From positions 146,492-210,491 of the forward strand of contig JANPJR010000030.1 in NCBI GenBank assembly GCA_031425615.1: a DNA stretch of 64,000 nt. Direction: 5' to 3'. Shown piece after piece: positions 11,180 to 45,375 of the stretch. The notes beneath the pieces are model-generated. The model saw only the letters and a list, made by a program, of their open reading frames with translations. It was not told where the DNA came from and made no database searches. Each line of letters begins with the position of its first letter. Position 1 is the stretch's first letter. The position numbers and the translations under genes were made by a program. Source of the stretch: Cytophagales bacterium (GTDB taxonomy: Bacteria > Bacteroidota > Bacteroidia > Cytophagales > Microscillaceae).

Positions 11180-11212
11180 TGAACCTTAAACCTTTGAACC
11201 TTTTAAACTTTC
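11180..11212 (+). repeat. TTGAACCTT-family 9-mer tandem array, overlapping the dtd C-terminus
   Basis: tgaaccttaaacctttgaaccttttaaacttt. Its reverse complement encodes ...ESLKGSKV* of dtd. Confidence 0.7.
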
Positions 11213-11644
11213 CAATATAATTGTAACAGGTCCGTCATTGCACAAAGTTACTTGCATATCTGCCCCAAATTCACCTGTTGGAATAGGTTTTTGAAGAAGA
11301 TTTTGCAAAGTTATCACAAAATTATCATACAAAATTTTTGCTTTACCGGGTTTTGCGGATTTGATAAAAGATGGGCGATTGCCTTTTTGGGTATCTGCAT
11401 AAAGCGTAAATTGACTTATGACCAATATTTCACCTTGAATGTCCTGCACAGAAAGATTCATTTTACCATTTTCATCTGAAAAAATACGCATCTGCACAAT
11501 TTTTTTAGTCAAATATTGTATATCTTTCTCCTCGTCATCCTCCCCTACGCCCAACAATACCAATAAACCTTTTTTTATCTCGCCTTTTACATTGCCTTCT
11601 ATGCTTACTTGTGCATGGCTCACACGTTGAATAAGTGCTATCAT
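11186..11644 (-). CDS. dtd: D-aminoacyl-tRNA deacylase
   Basis: MIALIQRVSHAQVSIEG...GLLVLLGV...ISQFTLYADTQKGNRPSF...NDGPVTI are canonical Dtd motifs. Confidence 0.92.
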   Translation of the reverse strand: MIALIQRVSHAQVSIEGNVKGEIKKGLLVLLGVGEDDEEKDIQYLTKKIVQMRIFSDENGKMNLSVQDIQGEILVISQFTLYADTQKGNRPSFIKSAKPGKAKILYDNFVITLQNLLQKPIPTGEFGADMQVTLCNDGPVTIILESLKGSKV

Positions 11645-11777
11645 GATATTGTTGTTGTATCAATTTATTCAGTTTTTTGTTATCTGTTTATTTTTTGTTA
11701 CCTGTTTATCTATCTAAAACTCAATGGATTTTTTTAGCTCTTTGAATTTAACCTAAAAAAAAACAAAAATTATCCTT

Positions 11778-11828
11778 TTTGAACCTTGAACTTTTTGAAC
11801 CTTGAACTTTTAAACCTTGAACTTTCTA
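11778..11828 (+). repeat. TTGAACCTT-family tandem array (5-6 units) immediately 3' of the OmpA-family gene
   Basis: tttgaaccttgaactttttgaaccttgaacttttaaaccttgaactttc. Confidence 0.8.
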
Positions 11829-13172
11829 ATCTTTCACAACTTTTATCTCTACTCTGCGATTTTTGTGGCGATTTTCTTCTGTATCGTTTGGTGCTATTGG
11901 TTTGCTTTGTCCAAAACCTGTTGAACTGATGCGTGCTTTTTTGATAAACCCATGTTCCACAATATATTGTGCGATAGCTTGCGAGCGGTCTTTGGAAAGT
12001 TGGAGGTTAAAATTAGCATCACCAACATTGTCAGTATGCCCTGAGATTTCAATATGATAATTTGGGTGGTCTTGCAAAAATTGGCTTATCATATTCAATT
12101 CGGGAAAACTATTTTTACCAATAACTGCCTTTCCTGTTTCAAATTCAATATTGGGCAAAATCAAAATAGCCCCCAAATTACTGGGTTGCAACACAAAATT
12201 TTGTTCTACAATTTTTTGATTTGGCTTCAATTCCACCAAAATACGTTGGCTAAAAAAACCTTGTGCTTTTGCCTCCAAATAAAATTTGTTGGTATATTGC
12301 ATACGACTAAACTCATATTGTCCTTTTTCTTTTTTGTCTTTATTTTCCCTTTCAGTCAATTCAAAAGCCCTATAATTAACATCTGTAAGCACATAATCAA
12401 TGCGTGAGGCAAGCGGTTGAGCATCTATTCCACTAATAACTTTACCTTTAATTTGCACAAATTCTTCTTCGTCTGGCGAGTCGTCATCAAGCGGAATTAC
12501 TTGGATATCATCTATGTAATAATACGCCCCTTCATAGCCTCCTTTTTGCCTGCGAACTGCTTTTGTGCGTTCTATTGGAAAAAAATTGCCTACAAAAAGG
12601 TAGCTAAAATTTTCAGTTGGAATAACAGTTTTTTCTAATGTTGTCCAATTATTATAATCTGTCAAAGGATTTGCAAATTTAGCGTGTGCCATTTGTGCGT
12701 GATAGCTGTCTTTGGTGTCATTTGAAAATAACATACCCAAATTATCACAAGCAAAATTAGAATATTCTTCTGCCAAACTTGCTTTTAGGCTTATTTTATA
12801 TTTGTGCCCTTTGCGTACAGGCGAAGTAAGGCGTATAGCTATGATTTCTAACGGTGATTTGACATGATACGCCAAAATACCAGCATAATTCTTGCCTTCG
12901 GAAGGCATTTGATACCCAAAAAAATTATTTGGTGTTTGGATTTTATTGCTTTGGGCATCAGCACTAAATAAATCAGGCGTAAAATAATTTTTTTCCCAAC
13001 CTTCTGCATCTTCTATATCACCATATTCCACAGGAGGCATTTTAAGGATTTCAAAACCTCCATTTGGTACAAGATTTTTGGCAGAAATTGGATTTTTATT
13101 GGTTTCTTGTGCAAAATTTTCTTTGGAAAAAATTAAAAAAACCAATGTAAAAAAAATAAAATAGAAACGCAT
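11826..13172 (-). CDS. OmpA-family protein (N-terminal secreted domain plus C-terminal OmpA peptidoglycan-binding domain)
   Basis: Signal peptide. The C-terminus ISGHTDNVGDANFNLQLSKDRSQAIAQYIVEHG...NRRVEI is the OmpA_C motif set. Confidence 0.85.
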   Translation of the reverse strand: MRFYFIFFTLVFLIFSKENFAQETNKNPISAKNLVPNGGFEILKMPPVEYGDIEDAEGWEKNYFTPDLFSADAQSNKIQTPNNFFGYQMPSEGKNYAGILAYHVKSPLEIIAIRLTSPVRKGHKYKISLKASLAEEYSNFACDNLGMLFSNDTKDSYHAQMAHAKFANPLTDYNNWTTLEKTVIPTENFSYLFVGNFFPIERTKAVRRQKGGYEGAYYYIDDIQVIPLDDDSPDEEEFVQIKGKVISGIDAQPLASRIDYVLTDVNYRAFELTERENKDKKEKGQYEFSRMQYTNKFYLEAKAQGFFSQRILVELKPNQKIVEQNFVLQPSNLGAILILPNIEFETGKAVIGKNSFPELNMISQFLQDHPNYHIEISGHTDNVGDANFNLQLSKDRSQAIAQYIVEHGFIKKARISSTGFGQSKPIAPNDTEENRHKNRRVEIKVVKD

Positions 13173-13245
13173 GTTTTAAGGAATTATTTTTGTGGTTAGA
13201 ACTTCTTATTACATTACGAAAATTTTGCCAAAAAGATTTTTTTTA

Positions 13246-13294
13246 GAAAAAACTAAAAAAACTGACGACTAAAAAAACTAACGACTGAAAAACT
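13246..13294 (+). repeat. AACTGACGACT / AACTAACGACTGAAAAACT tandem motif array
   Basis: aaaaactaaaaaaactgacgactaaaaaaactaacgactgaaaaactt, abutting the stop of the minus-strand gene. Confidence 0.6.
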
Positions 13295-13611
13295 TAAATA
13301 TCTTTATTTTTTTTGGAAAACATACTGCCAATGCGTGCAAATGTTCTTTTTTCAAAAGCCCAAAAAAAGGCAAATTGACCAAAAATAAAACCGTAAAACA
13401 ATAATAATATTTGGTACAAAGGCAACATTATCAACAAATACAATAATGTGTCTACAAAGCCACCACCATTGTTGAAACCTAATAAACTAAAAAGTGGTGT
13501 TTTAAGAAATAATACACTAAAACCTGTGCAAGCAAATACAATCAACACCAAAACCACTTGTGTAAGGCTTTTGAGTTGCCAACGTGCTTGTAATTTTTCT
13601 ATAAATGACAT
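13294..13611 (-). CDS. Small hypothetical membrane protein (2-3 TM)
   Basis: 105 aa with hydrophobic helices. No recognisable motif. Confidence 0.45.
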   Translation of the reverse strand: MSFIEKLQARWQLKSLTQVVLVLIVFACTGFSVLFLKTPLFSLLGFNNGGGFVDTLLYLLIMLPLYQILLLFYGFIFGQFAFFWAFEKRTFARIGSMFSKKNKDI

Positions 13612-13694
13612 TTTTTATAAGGGAATTTTTTATAATTTTACCACAAAATTAACCCAAAATTTTTAATATTGCAAAATCTTAAATTTCGCTCATC

Positions 13695-16502
13695 ATGAAC
13701 TTTCAAAGCCTCTCTAAAATTTTGCCCAAAAGTAAAGTTTTAATTGCCCAAAATCCAAAAGTTGACTTAAAAAATCTCTCTACTGATAGCAGAGAAGGTT
13801 GTTTTTTAGAAAATACGTTGTTTTTTGCACTCGTAGGCGAAAGACGCAATGGACACGATTTTATACAAGAAGTTATCCAAAAAGGTGGAAGAAATTTTGT
13901 GATTTCTGAAAATATTGATATTGAAGAGTTACTGAAAAATGTATCACAAAACCAACCAGAAAACCATAAAAATATCGCTTTAAATATCATCAAAGTACAA
14001 AATACCTTATACGCTTTGCAACGCATAGCACAAACCCATAGAGAAAATTTTGAATATCCAGTTATTGCTATTACAGGAAGCAATGGTAAAACAATAATCA
14101 AAGAATGGCTCTCAGAAATACTGCAAAACTTGGGTTTAAGTGTGGTAAAAAGCCCAAAAAGTTACAACTCACAAATAGGTGTGCCACTTTCAGTATGGCA
14201 AATGTCAAATATGCACAATATTGGTGTATTTGAAGCAGGTATTTCTCAAGTAAATGAAATGCAAAATTTGGAAAAAATATTACAACCTAATTTTTGTATT
14301 TTTAGCAATATAGGCGAAGCACACAAAAATGGATTTCCTTCACACATAGAAAAAATTAAACAAAAACTTTTTTTAGCTAAAAATACCCAAAAATTGATTT
14401 TTAATTTGAAATATACCCAATTAAACGAAGTTGTTGATATTTTGGAAAAAGAAAGTTTTTTTGAAAATCCAATGTTTCAAAAAATTATTTGGGGTGAAAG
14501 TGAAATTATAGACCAGTTTTTAGAAAAAAATAATCCTAATTTTGAAGAAAAAATACAATATAACTCAGATTTAAACTCAAAATATTACAAGGTTTCTTAC
14601 AAGCCTAATAATACCCATAAAAAATCGGGAATTCTTATACATTGTGTCAATCCAATACATACCAACTTATCGCCTACATATTTGTTTGCTGTGCCTTTCA
14701 AAGATGAAGCGAGTTTGGAAAATATTGCCCATATATTGGTTTTTTTATTGGATTTTTTATTGGAAAATATTGATAAGGCATACCAACAAAATCAACAAAA
14801 TGGAAACCAAGAAAAATCAACAGTTTATTATGAAAAATCCCAAAATGTGAGGAAAAATATAGAAAATAGCATTGAAAATCTCCAACCTGTACAAATGCGA
14901 TTGCAACGCAAAGCTGGCGTAAATTACTGTACATTGATTGATGACACCTATAATAATGATTTGGAAGGCTTAAAAATTGCTTTAGATTTTACAGCAACAC
15001 AACACAATGATACTTACAAACGCAAAATTTTGGTGTTGTCTGCCCCAGCAAATCAACAAGTTTCGGTTGAAATTTATAGCGATTTGTTGGCTACTTATTT
15101 ATGGCAATATGTGATAGATGTATTTGTAGGAATTGGTGATTTTTTTACAGAAAACCGAGATTTTATGTTAAAAATTATAGAAAATAAAAACCCAAACCAT
15201 GAAAATGCAAACCATATAAATTCAAATCATTCAAAATTAAAAAAAATCATTTTTTTAAATAATACAACTGATTTTTTTACAAAATTTACCCAAAAAGATT
15301 TTTTTCAGGATATTATTTTGATAAAAGGTGCAAGAAAATATCAATTTGAACAAATCATAAATTTCCTACAAGAAAAAACGCACCGCACAACCTTAGAAAT
15401 AAACCTAAATGCCCTCACACACAACCTTAATTTTTATAAAAGTCTTATAAAACCTTACACAAAAATAATGGTAATGGTAAAGGCTTTTGCATACGGGACA
15501 GGACGCACAGAAGTTGCACAACTTCTACAACACAATGGGGTGGATTATTTGGCAGTTGCTTATACAGATGAAGCGGTTGCACTACGCAAAGAAGGCATCA
15601 CAATTCCGATTATGGTAATGAATCCCACAGAGGAAGATTTTCCAAAAATAATTACATACAATATTGAGCCTGAAATATATAGTTTTGAGTTGTTGGAAAA
15701 ATGGTTTTTTTATTGCAAAAATACACAAAAAACTGATTTTGCTATACACCTAAAACTTGATACAGGCATGAAACGTTTGGGTTTTGAAAGTGATGAAATT
15801 AATCTTTTATGTGATTTTTTAAGAAAAAATTTACCAAAAAATGCACTAATCAAAAGTATTTTTACGCATTTAGCAGGGGCTGATGACGCATTTCATAATG
15901 ATTTCTCTTTAAAACAAATTGATGTTTTTTTAAAAAATGCTAAAATTATTACAAATCCTTCAAATAAAATAAACAGAAATATGCCAAAACCATTTTTGCA
16001 TCTGGTTAATTCTGCTGGAATTGTGCGTTTTCCTGAGGCACATTTTGATATGGTGCGTTTGGGTATTGGTTTGTATGGTATAGAAACAAATGAGATTTTT
16101 GCAGACAAATTGCAAGCAATTACAACACTCAAAACACATATTTCACAAATCAAAAAACTCAAAAAAGGCGAATCTGTAGGATATAGTCGCACACACATTG
16201 CCCAAGAAAATACGCAAATTGCTACGATTGCGATTGGTTATGCTGATGGTTTGAATAGACTTTTGAGCAATGAAAATGGCGAAGTTTGGATAAAAAATAA
16301 ATTATGTAAGATTGTAGGGCGTATTTGTATGGATATGTGTATGGTGGATATTGGCAACCTTGTGGTGGAAGTAGGCGAAGAAGTAGAAATTTTTGGTAAA
16401 AATATTTCTGTGCAAAGTATTGCCAAAAAAATAAATACCATTCCTTATGAAATCCTAACATCAATAGGCGAAAGGGTAAAGCGGGTTTTTTTTACAGAGT
16501 AG
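13695..16502 (+). CDS. murF: Bifunctional UDP-N-acetylmuramoyl-tripeptide--D-alanyl-D-alanine ligase (MurF) / alanine racemase (Alr) fusion
   Basis: N-terminal MurF domain (AITGSNGKTIIKEWL P-loop). C-terminal Alr (KAFAYGTG PLP-lysine region, ...VMVKAFAYGTGRTEVAQ..., GYADG). Long N/Q/K-rich low-complexity insertions between and within the domains. Confidence 0.9.
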   Translation: MNFQSLSKILPKSKVLIAQNPKVDLKNLSTDSREGCFLENTLFFALVGERRNGHDFIQEVIQKGGRNFVISENIDIEELLKNVSQNQPENHKNIALNIIKVQNTLYALQRIAQTHRENFEYPVIAITGSNGKTIIKEWLSEILQNLGLSVVKSPKSYNSQIGVPLSVWQMSNMHNIGVFEAGISQVNEMQNLEKILQPNFCIFSNIGEAHKNGFPSHIEKIKQKLFLAKNTQKLIFNLKYTQLNEVVDILEKESFFENPMFQKIIWGESEIIDQFLEKNNPNFEEKIQYNSDLNSKYYKVSYKPNNTHKKSGILIHCVNPIHTNLSPTYLFAVPFKDEASLENIAHILVFLLDFLLENIDKAYQQNQQNGNQEKSTVYYEKSQNVRKNIENSIENLQPVQMRLQRKAGVNYCTLIDDTYNNDLEGLKIALDFTATQHNDTYKRKILVLSAPANQQVSVEIYSDLLATYLWQYVIDVFVGIGDFFTENRDFMLKIIENKNPNHENANHINSNHSKLKKIIFLNNTTDFFTKFTQKDFFQDIILIKGARKYQFEQIINFLQEKTHRTTLEINLNALTHNLNFYKSLIKPYTKIMVMVKAFAYGTGRTEVAQLLQHNGVDYLAVAYTDEAVALRKEGITIPIMVMNPTEEDFPKIITYNIEPEIYSFELLEKWFFYCKNTQKTDFAIHLKLDTGMKRLGFESDEINLLCDFLRKNLPKNALIKSIFTHLAGADDAFHNDFSLKQIDVFLKNAKIITNPSNKINRNMPKPFLHLVNSAGIVRFPEAHFDMVRLGIGLYGIETNEIFADKLQAITTLKTHISQIKKLKKGESVGYSRTHIAQENTQIATIAIGYADGLNRLLSNENGEVWIKNKLCKIVGRICMDMCMVDIGNLVVEVGEEVEIFGKNISVQSIAKKINTIPYEILTSIGERVKRVFFTE

Positions 16503-16554
16503 CGTTCTAACCTCATAAAGGGAGTTAATAAAAAAACAATTAAATACTATTTGC

Positions 16555-16577
16555 TCCTCTTTGGGGGCTGGGGCTTT
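16555..16577 (-). repeat. REP-like element, inverted copy (CCTCTTTGGGGGCTGGGGCT), with a degenerate partner at about 16508-16524
   Basis: Between convergent murF/alr (+) and the ABC ATPase gene (-). Overlaps the ABC gene stop. Confidence 0.55.
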
Positions 16578-18258: not shown

Positions 18259-18265
18259 AAAAAGA

Positions 18266-18290
18266 TTATGAATTATGAATTATGGATTTT
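18266..18290 (+). repeat. ATTATGAATTATGGATT tandem motif
   Basis: gattatgaattatgaattatggatt, just upstream of the ABC gene start. Confidence 0.6.
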
Positions 18291-18336
18291 TTTGTTCTTT
18301 TAATTTTACAAAAAAAGATGAGTAACTACACATTTA

Positions 18337-23113: not shown

Positions 23114-23114
23114 T

Positions 23115-25898: not shown

Positions 25899-25931
25899 AA
25901 AAAATTCCTAATTTTTTCATTTCTAATTCTT

Positions 25932-28176: not shown

Positions 28177-28200
28177 AAGCCCCCTAAACCCAAAGGGGGG
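28177..28200 (+). repeat. REP-like element (AAGCCCCCTAAACCCAAAGGGGGG)
   Basis: About 17 bp upstream of the lipoprotein start. Paired with the inverted copy at 28287-28310. Confidence 0.6.
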
Positions 28201-29108: not shown

Positions 29109-29197
29109 AAAACTGAACCAACTGATTACTAAAAAAATTAATTACTGAACTAATTAATTACTGAACTAACTGATTACTGAAAAAACTGGCAACTTGT
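29109..29197 (+). repeat. (AATTA)CTGAAC(TAA) degenerate tandem array (~9 units)
   Basis: aaactgaaccaactgattactaaaaaaattaattactgaactaattaattactgaactaactgattactgaaaaaactggcaacttg. Confidence 0.7.
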
Positions 29198-30066: not shown

Positions 30067-30300
30067 GAGGCTATCATACTCTGATAATTTTAGCATTACT
30101 AAACCTATAATGTTTTTTAAAACCTTATAAGTTTTGAAACACTTATTTTAAATAATATGTTAAATTATAATTTAATTTTAAAAAAAACACTTAAAGATTA
30201 AAAAATAAATAAATTTTATATTTTTTTGTAACAAAAATATTGAAATAAAAACCTCCAATAAAATTGTCAGCGTACCAAGTCTATTAAATCAGAATTTTTT

Positions 30301-30355
30301 TGAATTTTGAACCTTGAACCTTTTGAACCTTGAACCTTTTGAACTTTGAACCTTA
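30301..30355 (+). repeat. TTGAACCTT-family tandem array (6 units) immediately 3' of cvpA
   Basis: tgaattttgaaccttgaaccttttgaaccttgaaccttttgaactttgaacctta. Confidence 0.8.
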
Positions 30356-30871
30356 ATCTATAAAATCTCGTATCATTTTGGATAATTCGTCTTCATCTTT
30401 TACACCTGTGAGAATGTATGCTACTGTTTCTACTAATTTATACATAAAAGATTTTTTTTGTAACTCATTATGAAATTCACCAAGCCCAGTCATAAACCAA
30501 AATATAAAACTCAATACCACAATATTACGCAAAATACCAAAAAATGCGCCTAAATAGTTGTCCCATTGTCCAGGAAATTCATAATCTATTTCAGATTTTA
30601 GATATTGCCCTAATGTATGGACAAGTTGCACAGCGGTAAGCACTGACACCGCAAAAACAAGTTCAGGATAGATGGTTTGATTAAATTTGAACATGTGCGT
30701 TGACATTAGATTGAACAATACTGAACAAAGTTTGAAGCACACCAAAAATGACAACACAAAATGCAAAAGCTTGACAACTTCTTGCAAAATGCCTTCTCTA
30801 TACCCAATATATGCACCCCAACCAATCGTGGAGGCTATCAATAAATCCAATACAATGCCTGGTATGTTCAA
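30353..30871 (-). CDS. cvpA: CvpA-family membrane protein (colicin V production protein-like)
   Basis: Four-TM CvpA architecture. The start codon is apparently TTG and overlaps an inverted TTGAACCTT-family array. Confidence 0.8.
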   Translation of the reverse strand: MNIPGIVLDLLIASTIGWGAYIGYREGILQEVVKLLHFVLSFLVCFKLCSVLFNLMSTHMFKFNQTIYPELVFAVSVLTAVQLVHTLGQYLKSEIDYEFPGQWDNYLGAFFGILRNIVVLSFIFWFMTGLGEFHNELQKKSFMYKLVETVAYILTGVKDEDELSKMIRDFID

Positions 30872-30906
30872 AGTTTAAGGTTCAAAAAGTTTAAGGTTTA
30901 AAAAAA
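30866..30906 (-). repeat. TTGAACCTT-family array in inverted orientation (aaagtttaaggttcaaaaagtttaaggtttaaa), overlapping the cvpA start
   Basis: Seen directly. In cvpA orientation it reads TTTAAACCTTAAACTTTTTGAACCTTAAACTTTGAAC-AT. Confidence 0.7.
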
Positions 30907-31206
30907 TAATTTCCTACAATGGCAATTTTTATCAAAATCTTCATCAAATTCTTTTTTAATAATTTTATACGTTGATTTTTCAAAAACAACTTCCCAATAA
31001 GAAGGATGTAAAAAAATTGCATTGCTTACTTGTTTTTTTTTTCCTAATGAATCAGTTTTTGTCTTGTATCAAGTATTTGTTCTTGATTTAGTATTTTTTT
31101 TGCTATTTCGCCATCAATGGCATAGGGATTTTTAAAATTTGCTAAGGAATTTACCATATTTTCTATTTTTTTGAAAAATATATAAAATAAATGTATTTTT
31201 AAATTC

Positions 31207-31254
31207 AAAAGTTTAAGATTTAAAAACTTTGAACCTTAAACTTTGAACCTTAAA
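31207..31254. repeat. TTGAACCTT-family array with mixed orientation, abutting the GatB/YqeY gene stop
   Basis: aaagtttaagatttaaaaactttgaaccttaaactttgaaccttaaacgg. Confidence 0.7.
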
Positions 31255-31260
31255 CGGATA

Positions 31261-31713
31261 CTACACCAAAAGTGATTTTACAATTTGAGAGATAAGTTTT
31301 CCCTCAGTCAATCCTGCCAATTCTTTGGTTGCTACACCCATGACTTTGCCCATATCAGATGGAACAGATGCACCTATACGTGTGATAATTTCTTTGATTT
31401 TTTCGGTAACTTCTGCTTCAGAAAGTTGTTTTGGCAAAAACTCTTCGATTACTGCTACTTCTCCATTTTCTTTGTCAGCCAAATCTGCACGATTTTGTGC
31501 AGCAAATATTTCTGCAGATTCCTTGCGTTGTTTGAGTGCTTTGCTTAGGATTTGTGTTTCTTCGGTAGTTGATAATTCAGGGCTTGTGCGTCCTGGTTTG
31601 GTTTCTTCAAGCAAAATTTGAGATTTGATGGCTCTCAATGTCAAAAGGCGTGCTTGTTGGCGTGCTAAGGTTGCTTTTTTGATTTCGTCTTCTATAATGG
31701 TTTTGAGTGACAT
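31261..31713 (-). CDS. GatB/YqeY domain-containing protein
   Basis: MSLKTIIEDEIKKATLARQQARLLTLRAIKSQILL...KVMGVATKELAGLTEGKLISQIVKSLL is the conserved YqeY pattern. Confidence 0.9.
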   Translation of the reverse strand: MSLKTIIEDEIKKATLARQQARLLTLRAIKSQILLEETKPGRTSPELSTTEETQILSKALKQRKESAEIFAAQNRADLADKENGEVAVIEEFLPKQLSEAEVTEKIKEIITRIGASVPSDMGKVMGVATKELAGLTEGKLISQIVKSLLV

Positions 31714-33716: not shown

Positions 33717-33723
33717 TGATAAC

Positions 33724-34818: not shown

Positions 34819-34858
34819 TGAACCTTTTGACTTTTGAACCTTAAACTTTTTGAATTTT
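34819..34858 (+). repeat. TTGAACCTT-family tandem array ending 1 bp before the di-haem enzyme ATG
   Basis: ctgaaccttttgacttttgaaccttaaactttttgaattttt. Confidence 0.75.
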
Positions 34859-34859
34859 T

Positions 34860-36260
34860 ATGAAAATCCTATTTTTAATTTCTGTTTTTTTGTTTTTGGT
34901 GGTAATTTCTTGTAAATATCAACAAGAAACCTCGCCAAATGTATATGAAGAAGGAGAAGAACTATCAGGAGGCGGGAATTTTACTACTTTTGATTTTTCA
35001 GAAAATGCTTTTGGTATTGAGGGCAAAAATTTAACACCACAACAAAGCAACGATTTTACCACAGGTAATTCTTCTTTTAGGTCAAATTGGGTTGTTGCTC
35101 CTTCTTCTGTACAAACTTTAGATGGATTGGGCGTATTGTTCAATGCAGTTTCTTGTGGAAGTTGTCATTTTAAAGATGGCAGGGCAAAACCGCCATTATC
35201 GCCCAATGAAAACCTAAATGGTTTGCTTTTTAGGCTTAGTATTGGCAATGATATACAAGGAAATCCAATTCCTGACCCAAATTATGGCACACAGTTACAA
35301 GATAAAGCTATTTTGGGTGTATTGCCCGAAGCAAAAGTAACGGTCAATTACCAAGAAATTACCCAAAATTATCCTGATGGCACGAGTTATACGCTACGCA
35401 AACCTATTTATACATTTTCACAACAAAATTATGGTAATTTTAGCCCAAATATGCTTTTTTCCCCTCGTATTGCCCAACAAATTTGCGGATTAGGTTTATT
35501 AGAAAATATCCCAGCACAAGATATTTTGGCTTTGGTTGATGAAAATGACACCAATAATGATAATATTTCAGGTAAAGCAAATATGGTGTGGGACGTGATA
35601 AACCAAAAAATAACATTAGGGCGTTTTGGCTGGAAAGCCAATGTAGCGACCCTCAAAGAACAAAATGCAGGGGCTTTTCATGGTGATATTGGCATCACAA
35701 GTAGCATTTTTCCACAAGAAAACATTACAGCAAACCAACAAAGCACGCTTGGAAACTTGCCAAATGGTGGTACGCCAGAAATAGACGATATTACACTTGA
35801 AAAAGTTTCTAATTATACCAAAATGCTATCTGTGCCTGCAAGGCGTGAGCCAAAAAATGAGGAAGTTTTGCAAGGAAAACAACTTTTTATGCAATTAAAT
35901 TGTAAATCCTGCCACAATCCAAGTTTTGTTACAGGAAACAATAGTCCAATATCTGCCCTCAATAACCAAAAAATATTCCCTTATACAGATTTATTATTGC
36001 ATGATTTGGGCGAAGATTTGGCAGACAATCGCACTGATTTTAAGGCAAATGGGCGTGAATGGCGTACGCCTCCACTTTGGGGAATAGGCATGTTGCAAAC
36101 GGTCAATAAACATACTTTTTTATTACATGATGGCAGGGCGAGAAATATAGAAGAAGCAATACTTTGGCATGGTGGAGAAGCAGAAAATCAAAAAAATGCG
36201 TTTAAAAATCTTTCAAAACAAGAAAGAAATGCAGTAATAAAGTTTTTAAATAGCTTGTAA
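34860..36260 (+). CDS. Di-haem c-type cytochrome oxidoreductase / putative peroxidase (DUF1111 family, the usual partner of imelysin)
   Basis: Lipoprotein signal. Two CxxCH haem motifs (CGSCH, CKSCH). ...GRFGWKAN... and ...TPPLWGIG... are DUF1111 hallmarks. Confidence 0.82.
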   Translation: MKILFLISVFLFLVVISCKYQQETSPNVYEEGEELSGGGNFTTFDFSENAFGIEGKNLTPQQSNDFTTGNSSFRSNWVVAPSSVQTLDGLGVLFNAVSCGSCHFKDGRAKPPLSPNENLNGLLFRLSIGNDIQGNPIPDPNYGTQLQDKAILGVLPEAKVTVNYQEITQNYPDGTSYTLRKPIYTFSQQNYGNFSPNMLFSPRIAQQICGLGLLENIPAQDILALVDENDTNNDNISGKANMVWDVINQKITLGRFGWKANVATLKEQNAGAFHGDIGITSSIFPQENITANQQSTLGNLPNGGTPEIDDITLEKVSNYTKMLSVPARREPKNEEVLQGKQLFMQLNCKSCHNPSFVTGNNSPISALNNQKIFPYTDLLLHDLGEDLADNRTDFKANGREWRTPPLWGIGMLQTVNKHTFLLHDGRARNIEEAILWHGGEAENQKNAFKNLSKQERNAVIKFLNSL

Positions 36261-37167: not shown

Positions 37168-37491
37168 ATGCTCCCAATTCAAATTACACCTTCAGCACAG
37201 GAAGTGATTTTACAGATAAAAACAAAAAAAAATATTACAAATGAATATGCTTTGAGAATAGGCATCAAAGGTGATGGTTGTGCAAAAGATACGCCTTTTA
37301 TGGGGTTTGATACACCAAGACCTACTGACAAGATTTTTGAAAATGTTTTTTTTAAAGAAAATACAACAGGAAATCAAACAGATATAAATATCATCATACA
37401 CCCAACCCAAATGATGTATTTATTTGGTTGGATATTAGATTATAAAAATGAAAATGACGAAAAGGGTTTTTATTTTTATAAAGAAAATTAA
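37168..37491 (+). CDS. Divergent HesB/IscA-family Fe-S cluster insertion protein-like
   Basis: ITPSAQEVILQI...ALRIGIKGDGCAKDTPFMGFD matches the A-type carrier pattern ITxxAxxxI...LRxxVxGGGCxG.... Confidence 0.45.
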   Translation: MLPIQITPSAQEVILQIKTKKNITNEYALRIGIKGDGCAKDTPFMGFDTPRPTDKIFENVFFKENTTGNQTDINIIIHPTQMMYLFGWILDYKNENDEKGFYFYKEN

Positions 37492-37530
37492 AATTTGGAT
37501 TATAGATTATGAATTATAGATTATTAAAAA
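37491..37530 (+). repeat. ATTATAGATTATGAATTATAGATTATT motif array immediately 3' of the HesB-like gene
   Basis: aaatttggattatagattatgaattatagattattaaaaa. Confidence 0.6.
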
Positions 37531-37633
37531 TTCACATTTTAGCTATTTTTTAAACTTTTTATTTAAAATATAATCTTTTTTGTATATTTGCACATTAAAA
37601 ATATTTAATCCAATCTCCAAAAATATCTAATAA

Positions 37634-37658
37634 CTCCCCCTTTGGGGGTTGGGGGGCT
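37634..37658 (-). repeat. REP-like element, inverted copy (TCCCCCTTTGGGGGTTGGGGGGCTT), about 5 bp upstream of the recG ATG
   Basis: Family consensus. The track's alternative start for recG lies inside it. Confidence 0.6.
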
Positions 37659-37663
37659 TTTTT

Positions 37664-39760: not shown

Positions 39761-39775
39761 TTTGAGCCCACCAAG

Positions 39776-39798
39776 TAGCCCCCTACCCCCCAAAGGGG
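39776..39798 (+). repeat. REP-like element (TAGCCCCCTACCCCCCAAAGGGG). Probable recG terminator.
   Basis: 16 bp after the recG stop. Confidence 0.6.
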
Positions 39799-39811
39799 AA
39801 CTAAAGGCATT

Positions 39812-39848
39812 AAACTGAAAAAACTGACTACTGAATTGACTAAAAACT
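39812..39848 (+). repeat. ACTGAAAAAACTGACTACTGAATTGACT motif array
   Basis: Abuts the stop of exbB/tolQ (-). Confidence 0.5.
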
Positions 39849-40488
39849 ATTTTGTTTCTTGCAACAAATCCATAAAATCCATTACTGTATATTCCATATT
39901 ATAAATGACTTTTTGCACCCTTGTAACCAAATAATTATACGCCAAATTGACCAAAATACCAATGATTAAGCCTGCAACAGTTGTAATTAACGCAGTATAA
40001 ATCCCGCTTGAAAGGATTTGTGGGTCTACTGCACCTTTCAACCTGGCAATTGTCATAAAAGCATCAACCATACCAATCACTGTGCCCAAAAAACCCACCA
40101 TAGGCGATGCTCCACCTATTGTGGCAAGCATAGCAAGGTTTCTTTCGAGGCGGTATACTTCTATTTTGCCCACATATTCTATGGAAGTTTCTATATTTTT
40201 GAGCGGACTGCCTATGCGTGTAAGCCCTTTGGCAACCATGCGAGCAATGGGCGAATTTTCTTGTTCGCACACAAGTTTTGCACCTTGTAGGTCTTCCGCC
40301 AATACCAATTTTTTGACTGTTTCCATCAAATCATCAGGATTGCGGGTTGCCAATCCTATGACATATACCCTTTCCAAAAATATGTACAAACCCACTACAA
40401 ATAGCAAAGCAAGCGGTATCATGGTAACACCGCCTTTGCTGGCAAGTTCTAAAATAGAAATGGTATTTTCAGTTTGTAAGAAAATCAT
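39847..40488 (-). CDS. MotA/TolQ/ExbB proton-channel family protein (no adjacent ExbD/TolR/TonB)
   Basis: Three TM helices with the conserved ...LATIGGASPMVGFLGTVIGMV... segment. Confidence 0.82.
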   Translation of the reverse strand: MIFLQTENTISILELASKGGVTMIPLALLFVVGLYIFLERVYVIGLATRNPDDLMETVKKLVLAEDLQGAKLVCEQENSPIARMVAKGLTRIGSPLKNIETSIEYVGKIEVYRLERNLAMLATIGGASPMVGFLGTVIGMVDAFMTIARLKGAVDPQILSSGIYTALITTVAGLIIGILVNLAYNYLVTRVQKVIYNMEYTVMDFMDLLQETK

Positions 40489-40537
40489 TTTTTTATAAGC
40501 CCTCTATCCCCAAATAAGGAATAAACAAATTTAATTT

Positions 40538-40960
40538 TTAATTTTTGTTTTTAAATGTAAAACCTTTTGGGGCTTTTGGTTCTTCAAAATCGTATCCATT
40601 AAAATATAATGTAACAACTTTTTTACTATTTTTATATGTGATTTTCCACACATCAAGCAGACCTTTGCCCATAAAAGCGGTTGGGCTATTGGTATCAAAA
40701 GAGCAACAACTGCCTTCCCTTTTTGTGGTAAATTCTTCGCCTTTGGCATCAACCAACGCACCCAAAAAAACATATTGATTTCGCACAGTGCCTACTTTTA
40801 TAGGATTTTTTTCGTCAAAACCATATTTTTTGCTTTTAGATTTGTCTTTCAATTTCATAGGTGGATTTTCTTGGCTAAACGCAACATTTTGCATAGCAAA
40901 AAACAACGCACAAAATAAAAAAATGAAAGTAGAAATTGGTTTTTTTAATGTATTGTTCAT
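40538..40960 (-). CDS. Hypothetical secreted protein
   Basis: Signal peptide. 140 aa. No motif. Confidence 0.5.
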   Translation of the reverse strand: MNNTLKKPISTFIFLFCALFFAMQNVAFSQENPPMKLKDKSKSKKYGFDEKNPIKVGTVRNQYVFLGALVDAKGEEFTTKREGSCCSFDTNSPTAFMGKGLLDVWKITYKNSKKVVTLYFNGYDFEEPKAPKGFTFKNKN

Positions 40961-41040
40961 AAATTTAAAAAAATGAATTAAAATTAAAATAAATGTTGTT
41001 ATTACGTATTTTGATGAACGTTTATGGTATTAGAGATTTT

Positions 41041-42069
41041 TTATTCTTTATCCTCTGTTTCCTCTTTGGGGGTTAAGGGGCTTTCTTTGGGGTTTAGAGG
41101 GCGGTCTTTAATAAGTTGTTCAAAAGAGTCCAAATACTGCCTAAGTTCTGCAATAGCATCAAGGCTTTGTTCTTCTAAAGAAGTACGCAAGCAATTTTTG
41201 ATACTTTTGGCAAGACCTTTTAACTGTTTTTCGTTGGGAATAAATGGCGTTTGGAGAATGGTTTTTTCGTTTTTTCGTTCATTTCTTTCAAGCATGGTCA
41301 TATCAAAACGTTGTTCTCTGCGAATAACCTCCTCAACTTCTTTAATTCTTTTGCCCAATTCGCCCATATCTTTGATATAATCTTTTCTGCCTTCATCTTC
41401 CAACCAATCTATGATTTTAGTGCGTGAAATAGGCAATTCGCCTTGTAGAATATGCCAGCGAAATGTCTCATCTTCGCCTGTAAGTTTATTAAGCCCTAAG
41501 AAATATTTTTCATCTCGTTGAATTGTTTTTACAGATACTTTGTGCATTGTAGCAAGATATTCAAGTGGTGTAAGTTTCTTTTCTTTTGGATTTTCGGTAT
41601 TATTTGTATTATGTTGATTGGTGCCTACTTGATTTTTTTCTCTTGCATATTGCATACCTCTGAGGTAAGATTTTGTTTCTTCTGTAATATTTCTTTTGCC
41701 AAATTGATTGCTCAACATCCAATCTTTTGCTTGGTTGATATTACCAAATTGCAAAATTACAAAATTAAAATCAAGTTCATGTTTGGTACAAATACCAAAA
41801 CGATTATGTCCATCAATTAATACATAATTATCACCTTCTTGCCAAAGCACAAGAGGGTCTCTACAACCTTCTTTTAAAATATTTTCCTCTAATTTTTCAT
41901 GTTCAATATGTGTAAGTGGCGGTATAAGGCTACGCAATTCTTCATTAATTTGTATATGTTTTTTGATATATTCATGAGATGCTTGGGCTTGTTTTTGCAA
42001 TTCTGCTTTTTGCCTTTCGCCTACGCTTATCAAACCACTCAAATTGGTAAAGGTGTCTTTTTTTCCCAT
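41041..42069 (-). CDS. ParB/Sulfiredoxin-superfamily N-terminal domain protein (ParB-like nuclease domain plus an uncharacterised helical C-domain)
   Basis: ...DPLVLWQEGDNYVLIDGHNRF... matches the ParB N-domain/Srx core. The C-terminal ~20 aa (PLNPKESPLTPKEETEDKE) are encoded by two tandem REP-like elements. Confidence 0.65.
   Translation of the reverse strand: MGKKDTFTNLSGLISVGERQKAELQKQAQASHEYIKKHIQINEELRSLIPPLTHIEHEKLEENILKEGCRDPLVLWQEGDNYVLIDGHNRFGICTKHELDFNFVILQFGNINQAKDWMLSNQFGKRNITEETKSYLRGMQYAREKNQVGTNQHNTNNTENPKEKKLTPLEYLATMHKVSVKTIQRDEKYFLGLNKLTGEDETFRWHILQGELPISRTKIIDWLEDEGRKDYIKDMGELGKRIKEVEEVIRREQRFDMTMLERNERKNEKTILQTPFIPNEKQLKGLAKSIKNCLRTSLEEQSLDAIAELRQYLDSFEQLIKDRPLNPKESPLTPKEETEDKE
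41061..41104 (-). repeat. Two tandem REP-like elements inside the 3' end of the ParB-like CDS (CCTCTTTGGGGGTTAAGGGGCTT plus TCTTTGGGGTTTAGAGGGCGG)
   Basis: Seen directly. Family consensus in inverted orientation. Confidence 0.6.
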
Positions 42070-42094
42070 AAAAAATTAATTAAAAGGTAGAAAT

Positions 42095-42127
42095 GGTAAA
42101 TTATGGATTAGAGATTATAGATTAAAA
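42095..42127 (+). repeat. ATTATGGATTAGAGATTATAGATT motif array upstream of the ParB-like gene start
   Basis: ggtaaattatggattagagattatagattaaaa. Confidence 0.55.
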
Positions 42128-42438
42128 CAGTAAAAAACGATTTTACATTTTTTTTACAAAAGCCTAAAATATATATTTCCATAATAAAAGACTTTTAAAA
42201 ATCTTTTATTATGGAAAAGATAAATTACCTTTATATAAAATTAAAGATAAAGTTAAAAAAAATAACAAATTATTTTAAATTTTAAATAAATTATTATATT
42301 TTTTTTACAAAAATACAAAAAAATAAAGAAAATAAAAAAAAATAGCAAAAAATAAAATTTATAAAATGCTTAATCGCTAATTTTCCATTCCTAATGAATA
42401 AAAATAAATTGGGCAAGCAAGAAAAGTGTCAGACAATC

Positions 42439-43641
42439 TTAATTTTTTGCCCCAATACTGCTGCCTGCATCAGCCAATTTATCACTCAAATTACGTAGAG
42501 CAGTTACCGCATCTAATATTTTTTGTGAATTGTTGAGAATAGCTTGGTCAAAAGGTGCTGGAATAAGATTTATTTTTGCTTCTGCGTCATTGAAAGCATT
42601 TACAACTGCATCATGTTTAGATTTGTTGGTATTTTCTGCAATTTGGGCAATGCTTGTGCCTGTGATATTTGTGCCATCAACTTTTTTGTATGTACCAAAA
42701 TACACATTTTTGATGCCCAAAAAATTCATTTTGATATCATCATTGGTATTATCGCTAAAACAAGAATGTTCATTTTCTTGGTCTTGTGTATCTACTGCTA
42801 CAAACATTCTTTCACCTGCCAATTCACCTTTTGAAAGTGTGCCTATGCCTGTAAAAATTTTACCCAAAGTGTTATTTATCTCGCTATTATTTACAAAATT
42901 TTCGCTATAAGTTGCCCCTTTTTTCCAACCATTGCTCACTTCTGCAAGGTGTTCTACAAGCAAATCGGTTGCTACTTTTAGATAAGTGCGTCTGCGAGAT
43001 TGGTTTTGGGCTGTGCCACCATTCACAAAATCTGTAAAAGGACGTGTCCCAGCAGAAGTCGTACTCAAATCTTGTCCCCAAAGCAAAAATTCAACTGCAT
43101 GATAACCCGTAGAAATAGACGTTTCAGATATGCTTTCATTTGCTTGCAAAATTACCTCTTTACTAATTGTTGGAAATCCACTTACATCATTGATAATACC
43201 CACATTTGCATTGCCTTGCACATAATCTATAAAATTTTCATCAATAGGCCACGCATTGATATAGCCTTCTACACCATCTACGCCATCAATCACACCACCA
43301 TAAAACCTAAACGCTTCACTCTGAGAATAAGGCGAGCGAGCAGATTTCCAAGCATTTTTGCAATTTTCCAAACCTTGTGCAGTAGGATTATTCACAAAAT
43401 CATTTACTTTTTGTTGCAACGATACCGCAGTATTGTAGGCATCTTCATAATTTGCCAAAACAATATTTGCATAATTTTCAATGCTTTGTTTTTTGAGGTC
43501 ATCAATAGATGGCGAATTATCTTTATTTTTACAAGATGTTAAAAAAAAAGACCCTAAAAAAAATAAAGCAAAGATGAGTACAATAGTATATTTGTATAAT
43601 AAATGGGAAAAAAAATGTGGCATAGAAATAGTTGTTTTCAT
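42439..43641 (-). CDS. Imelysin-family lipoprotein (iron-regulated protein A-like)
   Basis: Lipobox. TGYHAVEFLLWGQDL is the conserved imelysin GxHxxE motif. Confidence 0.82.
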   Translation of the reverse strand: MKTTISMPHFFSHLLYKYTIVLIFALFFLGSFFLTSCKNKDNSPSIDDLKKQSIENYANIVLANYEDAYNTAVSLQQKVNDFVNNPTAQGLENCKNAWKSARSPYSQSEAFRFYGGVIDGVDGVEGYINAWPIDENFIDYVQGNANVGIINDVSGFPTISKEVILQANESISETSISTGYHAVEFLLWGQDLSTTSAGTRPFTDFVNGGTAQNQSRRRTYLKVATDLLVEHLAEVSNGWKKGATYSENFVNNSEINNTLGKIFTGIGTLSKGELAGERMFVAVDTQDQENEHSCFSDNTNDDIKMNFLGIKNVYFGTYKKVDGTNITGTSIAQIAENTNKSKHDAVVNAFNDAEAKINLIPAPFDQAILNNSQKILDAVTALRNLSDKLADAGSSIGAKN

Positions 43642-43847
43642 AAATTCTTTGTGTTTATTTAGACTAATTAAAAATAATTTTTCGCAAAACTAAATATTAA
43701 AAATTAAAAACCAAATTTTATGATGATATTTGATGTTATTTATTTAGAATGGTTAAAAATAATAAACAACGCTTTTCAATAAAAAAATTAATTAATATTA
43801 ATATGTTGAAACAACTTTTTATCATACTGACTTTTTTCTTTGTCATA

Positions 43848-44402
43848 TTACCCCCAACTGTAAATGGGCAAATACGCATTTTTAATATCATAAAGTCCAT
43901 AAGCATTGGTTTTTTTTGTCATAATTGGTTGAGGAGTCAGTTTTGAACTTTCATAGTTCCACGAAATTTCATTGATGTCTTCTTTGGGTGGGCTTTTATA
44001 TTTATTTCCGCCCAATGCTGCAAAAAACCATTCTCTGTATGTTGGAAGTCTATATTTTTTTTTTGCAAGTTGATTGAGTTTTGGTAAAAACTTCTCTGTG
44101 ATGTCATTATAACTTACAGACTCTACTGGGCATTGTGGGCAATTTTGGTATTGTGAAGGGTTTTCATTTGTCAAAGCATACCAAAGTTCTTGAGTAACTT
44201 CGCCTTGTGCCACATAATAATTACATTTAGGAATTTTTATCATTTTAAAATTTATTCCTTTTATATTTTCTATAAATGAAGAATCACTTTGGTTTATTTC
44301 TTGTGCTGTTATTTGATAAGCAAATAAAAAAAAACAAGTAACAAAATAAAATTTGGTTGATTTCATTTTTAAATTTATTTTAAAATTGTAGATATTTAGC
44401 AA
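43848..44402 (-). CDS. Small secreted FGE-sulfatase (SUMF1/EgtB/GldJ-type) domain protein
   Basis: Signal peptide. ...YRLPTYREWFFAALGG... matches the FGE-domain RLPTEAEWEYAARGG motif. Only 184 aa. Confidence 0.65.
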   Translation of the reverse strand: MLNIYNFKINLKMKSTKFYFVTCFFLFAYQITAQEINQSDSSFIENIKGINFKMIKIPKCNYYVAQGEVTQELWYALTNENPSQYQNCPQCPVESVSYNDITEKFLPKLNQLAKKKYRLPTYREWFFAALGGNKYKSPPKEDINEISWNYESSKLTPQPIMTKKTNAYGLYDIKNAYLPIYSWG

Positions 44403-44447
44403 AAAATAATTTGTATTAAAATTTTAAATTAAAAATTCCTCAACTTT

Positions 44448-45236
44448 TCAATAAAAAAAATCTGTTTGAATTTCATATTTATCATAAAATTGTGACAAGA
44501 GATTTTTAAAATTTTTGGGAATAGCGTGTTTGCCTATAAAAAACGAATCGTATGGGATTTCCTTATAAAATGCTTCTGCGATACCTCCTGCGATACACGC
44601 TTGCGTATCAGCATCCCCCCCCAACGAAATAGCCAATCGCACACTGCTGAGCCAATCTTTACTATCTAAAAACGCAATAATTGCCTCTGGCACAGATGTT
44701 TGACAATGCGCACTAAACGTATAATTTGGGCGAATTTCCTCAATCGTTCTATACATATCATACCCAAAAGCTGTTCTAAGATATTCTCTTATTTCTGCTT
44801 TGGATTTGCCTTTTCGTGCCAAAAAAACGGTTGATGCCACAGCTTCAGCACCTTTTATACCTTCTGGGTGATTGTGGGTTACTTCTGCACTTGCTTTAGC
44901 CTCTGCAAGCACTTCATAAAGGGTTTCAAAAGCATACCCAATCGCCAACACACGCATGGCAGAGCCATTGCCAAAACTATTGTAAGGCGATAAATCATGG
45001 CTATCAATCCAAGCCCTAAAACCTCTACCATAACCCCTATTGGGATAATTTTGCCCATATAGTTTGTAGGTTTCAGCATAAGGCAAGCCATTCAACAATA
45101 CATCAATCGTAGCCATATTCATGACTGTATCATCTGTAAATGTTGATGTTTTTTCAAAAAGTGGAAAATACATGGTTTTTTTGCCTGCATTTTCATAAAT
45201 AGAACCTATTACATCACCCAAAATACCACCCCACAT
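44448..45236 (-). CDS. ADP-ribosylglycohydrolase-family protein
   Basis: GDVIGSIYE...TDDTVM...SLGGDADTQACIAGGIAEA are the ARH binuclear-metal motifs. Confidence 0.85.
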   Translation of the reverse strand: MWGGILGDVIGSIYENAGKKTMYFPLFEKTSTFTDDTVMNMATIDVLLNGLPYAETYKLYGQNYPNRGYGRGFRAWIDSHDLSPYNSFGNGSAMRVLAIGYAFETLYEVLAEAKASAEVTHNHPEGIKGAEAVASTVFLARKGKSKAEIREYLRTAFGYDMYRTIEEIRPNYTFSAHCQTSVPEAIIAFLDSKDWLSSVRLAISLGGDADTQACIAGGIAEAFYKEIPYDSFFIGKHAIPKNFKNLLSQFYDKYEIQTDFFY

Positions 45237-45265
45237 AAATTTTAATTAGGAATTTGAAAATTAAA

Positions 45266-45286
45266 GTCCCCTAACCCCCAAAGGGA
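45266..45286 (+). repeat. REP-like element (AGTCCCCTAACCCCCAAAGGG)
   Basis: Between the gpmI stop and the ARH start. Confidence 0.55.
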
Positions 45287-45338
45287 ACTTGAACATGGTT
45301 TTTTTAATGATTGGGGGAGAATAAAAAACTATAATTGC

Positions 45339-45375
45339 CCTTGAACCTTTTAAACCTTAAACCTTTTGAACTAAA
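45339..45375 (+). repeat. TTGAACCTT-family tandem array overlapping the gpmI C-terminus
   Basis: ccttgaaccttttaaaccttaaaccttttgaactaaaat. Its reverse complement encodes ...LVQKV* of gpmI. Confidence 0.75.

Follow-up and report, generated by a model that had tools for sequence, protein, structure and literature searches.

Intergenic repeats with a heptanucleotide unit have been known in bacteria since 1990 and still have no agreed function. They include the short tandemly repeated repetitive (STRR) sequences of heterocystous cyanobacteria, and a survey by Mrazek in 2007 reportedly dealt with long simple sequence repeats (LSSR) whose units measure 5-11 nucleotides (nt). Such repeats resemble the arrays described below in that heptamer arrays are the dominant non-coding class, lie mostly between genes, expand by slippage and have no established function; the surveys differ in treating repeats as phenomena of composition or expansion, and we did not find a polarity toward gene boundaries reported in them. 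Here we describe tandem arrays of the heptamer TTGAACY in a 64,000-nt stretch of the genome of a Cytophagales bacterium of the Microscillaceae (assembly GCA_031425615.1, contig JANPJR010000030.1, positions 146,492 to 210,491), referred to throughout as the window. All arrays of this family in the window are oriented by the open reading frame (ORF) that they adjoin, and the same polarity is found in many bacterial phyla.

The closest described system is the TAACTGA heptamer, which occurs between genes in Beggiatoaceae, cyanobacteria and a few Bacteroidetes including Flexibacter litoralis (MacGregor 2015, PMC4679880). It forms tandem sets of 2-6 units, the 'forward' type lying a few nucleotides from start codons, and a reverse set after a stop receives a single mention, for Flexibacter litoralis (PMC4679880). 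Heptamers of the sequence TTTTGAA are likewise intergenic repeats just upstream of starts in Nostoc (bioRxiv 10.1101/2022.06.06.494920). The window arrays share with TAACTGA the tandem 7-nt units at many intergenic sites, the mixture of several families, the insertions and deletions between strains in 7-nt steps and the lack of a known function; a family of AACTGA type is present in the window too. They differ in their unit, TTGAACC with 0-2 additional T, and in being mostly of the reverse type flush with stops, some of them being read as codons and one supplying a TTG start. The TAACTGA account (PMC4679880) comes without a stop/start polarity rule, outward-pointing pairs or a wide distribution over phyla and phages. 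Neither the repeat class nor the 'forward before start' pattern is new to the literature. For the TTGAACY family, the general stop/start polarity rule and the outward-pointing pairs we found no published description, and a literature search for TTGAACC, TTGAACT, GGTTCAA and AGTTCAA as bacterial repeats found nothing relevant.

Three further systems offer partial parallels. The repetitive extragenic palindromic (REP) sequences and bacterial interspersed mosaic elements (BIME) of enterobacteria are short dispersed repeats found just after stops and in the gaps that separate co-directional genes, commonly paired in inverted orientation; they can affect the upstream mRNA and its translation. The REP unit is an imperfect palindrome of ~35 nt mobilised by a RAYT transposase. 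Post-stop position and inverted pairing are common to our arrays, whereas the latter consist of non-palindromic 7-nt tandem units that are unstructured alone, with no palindrome of ~35 nt. Contingency loci are also slippage-prone repeats near gene ends with a unit that is not a multiple of 3. However, they sit in the 5′ coding regions or promoter spacers of surface or virulence genes, whereas the arrays flank housekeeping genes and are mostly post-stop; the placement typical of phase variation, in frame or in the promoter spacer of a surface or virulence gene, was not found. Finally, the omega repressor of pSM19035, a ribbon-helix-helix protein, binds heptads, which are 7-bp units that follow one another without gaps, directly or inverted, and function only in arrays. 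The 7-bp periodicity is the sole feature in common, and spacing in the window varies from 7 to 9. The protein of the omega heptads is known, and they make up a small number of operators on plasmids, placed upstream of promoters, whereas the arrays likely occupy hundreds of ORF-end sites with several unrelated unit sequences.

Position and orientation of the arrays in the window

A pattern scan of the window for TTRAAYY(T0-2) in at least 3 units found 8 arrays, compared with a mean of 0.005 and a maximum of 1 in 200 dinucleotide-preserving shuffles of the same DNA. Single 9-mers are scarcely enriched (46 vs 35 expected), and it is the clustering that is non-random. A sequence-only reading of the window had described arrays of a 9-mer at seven places. 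All seven are present, both by reading of the sequence and by pattern scan, and the one listed at 31207 turned out to be an inverted pair, 31201-31225 on the minus strand and 31228-31251 on the plus strand. The 9-mer itself has to give way to a heptamer: the claimed 9-mers overlap one another by 2 nt, and Tandem Repeats Finder (TRF) assigns them periods of 8, 14 or 16, of which 16 equals 7+9. TTGAACC plus 0-2 extra T forms the unit, which has the variants TTAAACC and TTGAACT and is repeated 3-6 times per array; in other phyla TTGAACY is a strict heptamer.

These arrays have the head-to-tail tandem 7-nt unit of the intergenic heptamer class (STRR, LSSR5-11 and TAACTGA type), they lie at dispersed, non-genic sites with several unit families side by side, and their presence and copy number differ between close relatives. 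The 'forward' copies directly before starts known from TAACTGA are represented by the two arrays that adjoin the starts of cvpA and of a di-haem oxidoreductase gene (DHOR), while 5 of the 7 window loci are of the reverse, post-stop type. The window loci are copies of a dispersed heptanucleotide microsatellite within this known bacterial class, and TTGAACC is one of at least four heptamer families in this Cytophagales genome. No Rfam family was matched in the window.

To describe the polarity, each array was oriented as TTGAACY against a simple gene map of the window. The TTGAACY 3′ end lies no more than 11 nt from an ORF boundary, or overlaps it, in 8/8 arrays. The 5′ end is 37-504 nt from the other neighbour (37 nt for the array at 31201-31225 and at least 72 nt for the remaining seven), and all 8 arrays are intergenic or overlap first or last codons only. 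A boundary with an ORF of the same strand is a start (cvpA, DHOR), and one with an ORF of the opposite strand is a stop (dtd, ompA-like, cvpA, yqeY, gpmI). In terms of mRNA, UUGAACY stands directly before starts and RGUUCAA directly after stops. The two minus-strand arrays obey as well, that at 30870-30903 reading toward the cvpA start and that at 31201-31225 overlapping the TTG of a 54-amino-acid (aa) ORF.

The other heptamer families of the window behave alike. The AACTGA(C/A) family is forward before starts at 59664 and 62310, points at the stops of minus-strand genes at 13252, 47046 and, by inspection, 4030, and is reversed after the stops of plus-strand genes at 23114 and 25527. The AATTCCT family has a forward array ahead of a start at 61615 and another directed at a stop at 25904, and the TATAATC family is forward before minus-strand gene starts at 18265, 30030 and 42100, its complement GATTATA following a plus-strand gene stop at 37498. 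Among these 7-9 nt families, most of whose arrays are flush with ORF boundaries, a further array is listed at 29112; a single ATTGTTA array lies at 1638.

This behaviour bears on a proposal of the sequence-only reading, that nearly all copies share one chromosomal orientation regardless of gene strand, reminiscent of architecture motifs. The shared orientation is real to the extent that 6 of the 8 arrays read TTGAACC on the plus strand and 2 on the minus strand. The independence from genes did not hold, as the adjacent ORF boundary fully predicts orientation in all 8 cases, both minus-strand arrays included, and the plus strand predominates because the region is a run of minus-strand genes. 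Motifs oriented by replication, such as KOPS or Chi, have an orientation set by the chromosome arm and are dispersed as single copies, also within genes, whereas TTGAACY is found as tandem arrays outside genes and inverted pairs are common. The AACTGA arrays flip with gene strand and are therefore unlike such motifs, other families in the window flip likewise, and the 64-kb window has no clear GC-skew switch. We thus give next to no credence to a chromosome-architecture or replication-oriented motif.

The individual arrays, lettered here from A to G along the window, illustrate how closely they are fitted to gene ends. Array A (11180-11211, plus strand; TGAACCTTAAACCTTTGAACCTTTTAAACTTT, read as RGTTYAA in the minus-strand mRNA) overlaps the last ~8 codons and the TAA stop (11186-11188) of dtd. 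In an alignment, Dtd homologues are conserved through ...NDGPVTIILES and then carry 2-4 variable residues; the LKGSKV* tail of the window protein is array-encoded and not homologous to the tails of relatives. Array B (11777-11825, plus strand), with 6 units alternating between 7 and 9 nt, stands directly after the TAG stop (11826-11828) of an OmpA-family gene, with the dtd start 130 nt further downstream. At a distance of ~0.5 kb from these two arrays, positions 10337-10714 of the plus strand encode an RRM-type RNA-binding protein whose tail is rich in Gly and Asn; there is no evidence that it has to do with the repeats. The longest and most regular array, C (30298-30359, plus strand; (TTTTGAACCTTGAACC)x3), abuts and overlaps the TAA stop of cvpA (30353-30355). 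At the other end of cvpA, array D (30870-30903, minus strand) is of TTGAACC type and lies directly upstream, its last unit TTGAAC providing the TTG start and Asn codon of the gene (30866-30871).

Next to yqeY the two members of the inverted pair face each other. Array E (31228-31251, plus strand; mRNA GGTTCAAAGTTTAAGGTTCAAAG) lies 9 nt after the yqeY TAG stop (31261-31263) and is complementary to both E′ and D. Its partner E′ (31201-31225, minus strand; TTTTAAATCTTAAACTTTTGAATTT on that strand) contains the TTG of the 54-aa ORF (31044-31208), which is unconfirmed and has no Pfam match. The part of the yqeY-cvpA spacer between E′ and D (30904-31200, minus strand) measures ~300 nt and holds small ORFs of 37 aa (ATG 31156) and ~43 aa (ATG near 31019). 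Array F (34819-34859, plus strand), again of TTGAACC type, occupies a divergent intergenic region up to the ATG of the DHOR gene at 34860. The final 5 codons of gpmI (LVQKV), together with its TAA stop (45357-45359), are overlapped by array G (45341-45372, plus strand), and a terminator-like C/G hairpin follows at 45286-45267. Elsewhere in the window, a 94-nt intergenic unit is tandemly duplicated with ~80% identity (52505-52695).

Most gene-level statements of the sequence-only reading agree with these data. The names dtd, ompA-like, cvpA, yqeY, gpmI and di-haem enzyme are upheld by Pfam (Tyr_Deacylase, OmpA, Colicin_V, YqeY, iPGM and di-haem DHOR), and an array does run up to the di-haem ATG. 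It is equally correct that the repeat has been recruited into coding sequence at dtd and gpmI, where LKGSKV*, LVQKV* and the stops are read from the array, the Dtd alignment being in support, and that the copy at 30866 is inverted and overlaps the TTG start of cvpA. Of six arrays assigned to the 3′ ends of genes five are so placed (dtd, ompA-like, cvpA, yqeY, gpmI), while the sixth, at 30870, adjoins the cvpA start.

Polarity in other bacteria and in phages

TTGAACY arrays were sought in one genome per species, which gave at least 120 loci, and in phage contigs. Counts from the bacterial scan and from the first phage-contig scan are lower bounds and not a census, and the counts of arrays and pairs given from here on hold among the matches listed. 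These matches come from Bacteroidota, Acidobacteriota, Desulfobacterota, Verrucomicrobiota, Nitrospirota, Planctomycetota, Cyanobacteria, Chloroflexota, Proteobacteria, Patescibacteria and others, and the AT-rich unit is present in genomes of up to 68-69% GC, standing out against a background of 65-69% GC.

ORFs in the fetched loci were called with our own greedy caller, which accepts ATG and GTG starts only; duplicates were removed and a boundary window of 25 nt was used. In first-pass ORF calling, many 'starts' were TTG codons within arrays. Within 25 nt of a boundary, 39 bacterial arrays present the complement after a stop and 15 present TTGAACY before a start, compared with 2 and 3, respectively, in the opposite orientations (54 vs 5 in total, ~1e-11 by a rough binomial estimate). 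Start-proximal arrays in bacteria are accordingly forward in 15/18 cases. Arrays within ORFs have the stop-free RGTTCAA as sense strand in 19/19 cases. In phage contigs 24 post-stop arrays follow the rule and 15 do not, and before starts the corresponding numbers are 13 and 6; the post-stop bias alone holds there, and it is weaker than in bacteria. Near-identical phage contigs differ in the unit number of an array.

A reversed-sequence control heptamer, YCAAGTT, returned 35 loci in phage contigs, belonging in part to a related TTGAAAC family, and two base-matched permutations were added as controls beside it. (TTGAACT)5 is present in 9 phage contigs, vs 1 and 1 for the two permutations. Other tandem arrays in the loci fetched with TTGAACY are dominated by the same period, with 53 non-TTGAACY arrays at period 7 and no more than 16 at any other period from 5 to 11.

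Some of these loci have a more elaborate organisation. A phage lineage (L130, L148, L192, L209, L229, L238) carries an array in every intergenic region as a fixed composite, made of a stop, 10-16 nt, (RGTTCAA)3-4, CG, TTGAAC, (ATAGAAC)2-4, GATATAAAAAAGGAGG and a start; it holds a promoter-like TTGAAC-N16-TATAAA and a Shine-Dalgarno site directly after the array. In an Acidobacteriota metagenome-assembled genome (MAG) arrays are embedded in ~100-bp tandem units (L069, 2316-2780), and in a Desulfobacterales MAG they lie in 110-nt inverted arms, 90% complementary, around a 384-nt segment between apparently divergent genes (L027, 1076-1679).

Base composition offers a partial description of the polarity. 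Among all fetched loci, the heptamer arrays other than TTGAAC that abut stops are richer in G than in C on the mRNA strand in 24 cases and poorer in 1; that strand is purine-rich in 27/31. Before starts, the mRNA strand of heptamer arrays is G-poor (21 vs 12). A rule of 'G-poor before starts, C-poor after stops' fits all families of the window, and the excess of G over C after stops may point to avoidance of Rho loading sites.

Several simpler causes of the polarity were tried and set aside. Avoidance of Rho sites fits the 24:1 ratio, but as the sole cause it fails since AGUUCAA retains UC and TTGAACT has C = G; we keep it within the idea of a compositional filter. A three-frame stop barrier is attractive for TTGAACY, which has TGA in all frames while its complement is stop-free, yet among arrays of other families that abut stops, the ORF-pointing strand carries stop triplets in 11/31 and the other strand in 20/31. 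Loading of purines alone suits the other families and not TTGAACY leaders. A sigma-70-type promoter is not indicated, promoter-like sites showing no excess (78 vs 88 expected) and inspection revealing no correctly spaced -10 element near TTGAAC. Polar growth of arrays with a gradient of degeneracy was likewise rejected, as forward-like units are equally common on both flanks (164 vs 148).

The recurrence of one heptamer raises the alternative that arrays are multimeric binding sites for a sequence-specific factor that marks or regulates ORF boundaries. Candidates would be a binder of ~7 nt of single-stranded RNA or DNA (a cold-shock domain, ribosomal protein S1 or an RRM) or a ribbon-helix-helix protein polymerising on 7-bp heptads in the manner of the omega repressor. 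The strict polarity of the same heptamer across phyla and phages, its enrichment over permutations, the AT-rich unit inside GC-rich genomes and the accessibility that follows from isolated arrays being unstructured all agree with such a factor. S1, Csp and CsrA have been proposed for the TAACTGA repeats (PMC4679880), and the RRM protein gene in the window is circumstantial evidence only. Against this, at least four unrelated heptamer families share the placement rule and relatives swap families at the same site, which argues for a generic property and not for one recognition sequence. The 7/8/9 spacing in the window is also awkward for a rigid multimer, and no candidate protein is linked to the arrays. 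We therefore consider a dedicated binding factor improbable.

Turnover between relatives

An exact-protein look-up of CvpA gave no match and a metagenome scan with it gave no relatives; these were reached via searches with YqeY and Dtd, which place the organism among Cytophagales and whose top named matches belong to Spirosomataceae and Microscillaceae, with 63-66% identity. The Logan contigs of the source sample do not differ from the window, and one of them breaks off within an array. The closer genomes compared are L277, from a Logan assembly, and L278/L281, both from GCA_013297825.1.

The arrays are not conserved at orthologous gene ends, a comparison that the sequence-only reading had proposed: relatives with 87% YqeY identity carry another array family, a hairpin element or nothing at the corresponding boundaries, and the window, L277 and L278/L281 differ at every boundary compared. 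Downstream of the cvpA stop, (GGTTCAA)n in the window corresponds to (ATTAGGA)n in L277 and to two C/G hairpin elements in L278. The spacer between yqeY and cvpA varies from 13 nt in L277 through 246 nt in L278 to ~390 nt in the window; arrays are absent from it in L277 and flank it in the other two, between which the internal sequence differs. The start of cvpA changes accordingly, being ATG AAT in L277, where there is no array, and TTG AAC with an array in L278 and the window. The Dtd tail, array-encoded in the window, is encoded by the hairpin element in L281 (PKAP*). An array follows the yidD stop in L281 where the window has an ordinary terminator hairpin, and a forward TTGAACC array precedes a Tic110-like gene in L278 and not in the window.

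The element that alternates with the arrays is a second dispersed repeat, a small C4-5/G4-5 hairpin that often reads CCCCCTAACCCCCAAAGGGGG. It occurs in the window at 1006, 2119, 28180-28199, 28289, 37637, 39788, 41061-41080 and 45267-45286, and in relatives at L278 6200-6290 and L281 7495-7525. Its palindromic core was matched at 5 sites, each on both strands (10 matches vs 0.33 expected). In relatives it is flush after stops, where the window carries TTGAACC arrays instead. This element, which swaps places with the arrays, resembles REP more closely than they do.

Arrays are thus short-lived, slippage-prone and interchangeable with other repeats, and sites flush with ORF ends are nonetheless refilled repeatedly. 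It is only at the untranslated edges of ORFs that they persist. Differing repeats at the same gene ends together with varying unit numbers mean that the arrays behave as slippage-driven microsatellites. The earlier contention that they are something other than simple slippage is therefore half right: the placement is too regular for unconstrained slippage, while the turnover between orthologs and the changes in unit number are typical of it.

The same data invite the view that the arrays are expansion-prone microsatellites or selfish repeats without any positive function, ORF edges being merely what selection leaves to them. Fast turnover at orthologous sites where repeat types replace one another, variable unit numbers, neighbours that are unrelated housekeeping genes and the prevalence of heptamers among the other arrays of the fetched loci all speak for it. 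So do the visible composition filters and the strand symmetry of the stems described below. Repeats of 5-11 nt also appear as a general expansion tendency in the work of Mrazek (2007), as far as it is summarised in PMC4679880. Filters explain orientation, however, and not the flush position of the arrays (8/8 within 11 nt on one side, the other flank being 37-504 nt away). The repeated acquisition of arrays at the same site is left unexplained, as is the recurrence of one AT-rich heptamer in distant phyla with high GC and at 9:1:1 against its permutations. On balance we regard a complete lack of function as rather unlikely, though a serious contender.

Facing pairs and a possible basis of the polarity

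Alone, the arrays have next to no structure. As RNA, four of the isolated window arrays have a minimum free energy of 0 kcal/mol (B and C among these) and two of -0.4 to -0.5 kcal/mol, no better than shuffles; A and F are unstructured, and the local contexts of orphan arrays are no more structured than shuffles either. An intrinsic (Rho-independent) terminator was rejected, as A, B, C and G fold at 0 to -0.4 kcal/mol and no array is in the list of a terminator scan.

Facing arrays are predicted to fold. The AU-rich hairpin of E and E′ reaches -14.6 kcal/mol (z -3.8), and a predicted long-range stem between E and D encloses the entire yqeY-cvpA spacer, with the TTG start of cvpA lying in the stem (-82 kcal/mol, z -4.3). 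L278 has an equivalent predicted stop-to-start stem with unrelated internal sequence (z -12.8). The arrangement recurs in other genomes. An inverted partner, counted as at least 2 reverse units within 150 nt, lies on the 5′ side of 52/127 bacterial arrays and on the 3′ side of 2/127, and pairs in the order reverse-then-forward outnumber the opposite order by 26:3 in bacteria and 15:0 in phage contigs. Pairs flush with both neighbours lie between co-directional genes in 8/10 bacterial and 7/8 phage-contig cases, and between roughly a half and two-thirds of the arrays in each class are members of such pairs, whose layout is [stop]-(RGTTCAA)n-loop-(TTGAACY)n-[start]. Selection on the paired stems at the level of RNA was examined and rejected: the sense strand is the more stable in 9 and the antisense strand in 9, and there is no wobble-pair signature.

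Inverted arrays around a filled spacer could also be read as the terminal inverted repeats of a small mobile element or cassette with insertion sites between ORFs, or as the footprints that it leaves. The empty 13-nt yqeY-cvpA site of L277 beside the filled sites of 246 nt and ~390 nt, both bounded by inverted arrays around differing internal sequence, would suit such an element, as would the arrays within the 110-nt inverted arms of L027 and the frequency of inverted partners (52/127). The filled sites, however, lack target-site duplications and retain nothing of the 13-nt empty site; their cargo is not conserved, and there is no linked transposase. The majority of window arrays stand alone, directly oriented around genes, and variation in unit number is typical of slippage. 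A mobile element is accordingly a very unlikely source of the pairs.

We propose instead, with confidence and doubt about evenly balanced, that the polarity arises from constraints on the transcript and on its translation, one strand being tolerated in leaders and the other in trailers, and that facing pairs act as stems. Our best guess is that selection acts at the level of translation. The G-poor, structure-free TTGAACY repeat would be tolerated, or useful, as a leader that lacks a Shine-Dalgarno site, and the last TTG of a pre-start array can become the start codon. In the ribosome-free trailer only the C-poor complement RGTTCAA would be tolerated, possibly by not loading Rho. Where a post-stop array faces a pre-start array, a long stem may form whose base joins the stop to the start of the next cistron, as predicted for yqeY-cvpA. 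Initiation downstream would then depend on terminating upstream ribosomes that unwind the stem, which might result in translational coupling.

Several observations weigh against this proposal. The polarity is weaker in phage contigs (24 + 13 arrays per rule vs 15 + 6 not), and our ORF caller is crude, start positions being uncertain and stops more reliable. The composition rule fails for the polarity of TTGAACT, since here C = G. Stems account for part of the family only, as arrays A, B, C, G and F are orphans with no partner nearby. The tie of 9:9 between sense and antisense stability means that there is no sign of selection at the RNA level, and a DNA palindrome fits equally well. The presence of TTGAACY in high-GC genomes and the 9:1:1 ratio of (TTGAACT)5 hint at a sequence-specific partner, which a generic model does not supply. 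Finally, the functional half of the proposal is what we infer from these patterns.

A bolder version, which we consider distinctly doubtful, would make the TTGAACY arrays a cis-element of many phyla and phages that marks ORF boundaries for a conserved machine, either the ribosome or an abundant single-strand binding protein. UUGAACY ahead of starts would then serve as a landing site independent of Shine-Dalgarno pairing, and by pairing with it the complement behind stops would form stop-to-start stems that couple translation across inserted spacers.

For the organisms that carry them, the arrays have consequences that bear directly on annotation, as they can rewrite the last codons of proteins (Dtd, GpmI) and exchange an ATG start for TTG (CvpA). 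They also break short-read assemblies, contig L001 terminating within an array. For the wider class of intergenic heptamer repeats, a simple rule emerges in which an array is directed toward the nearest ORF, one strand preceding starts and the complementary strand following stops. It applies to several families and, in the case of TTGAACY, to many phyla, and it leads to testable predictions on leaders, trailers, stop-to-start stems and the access of Rho and ribosomes.

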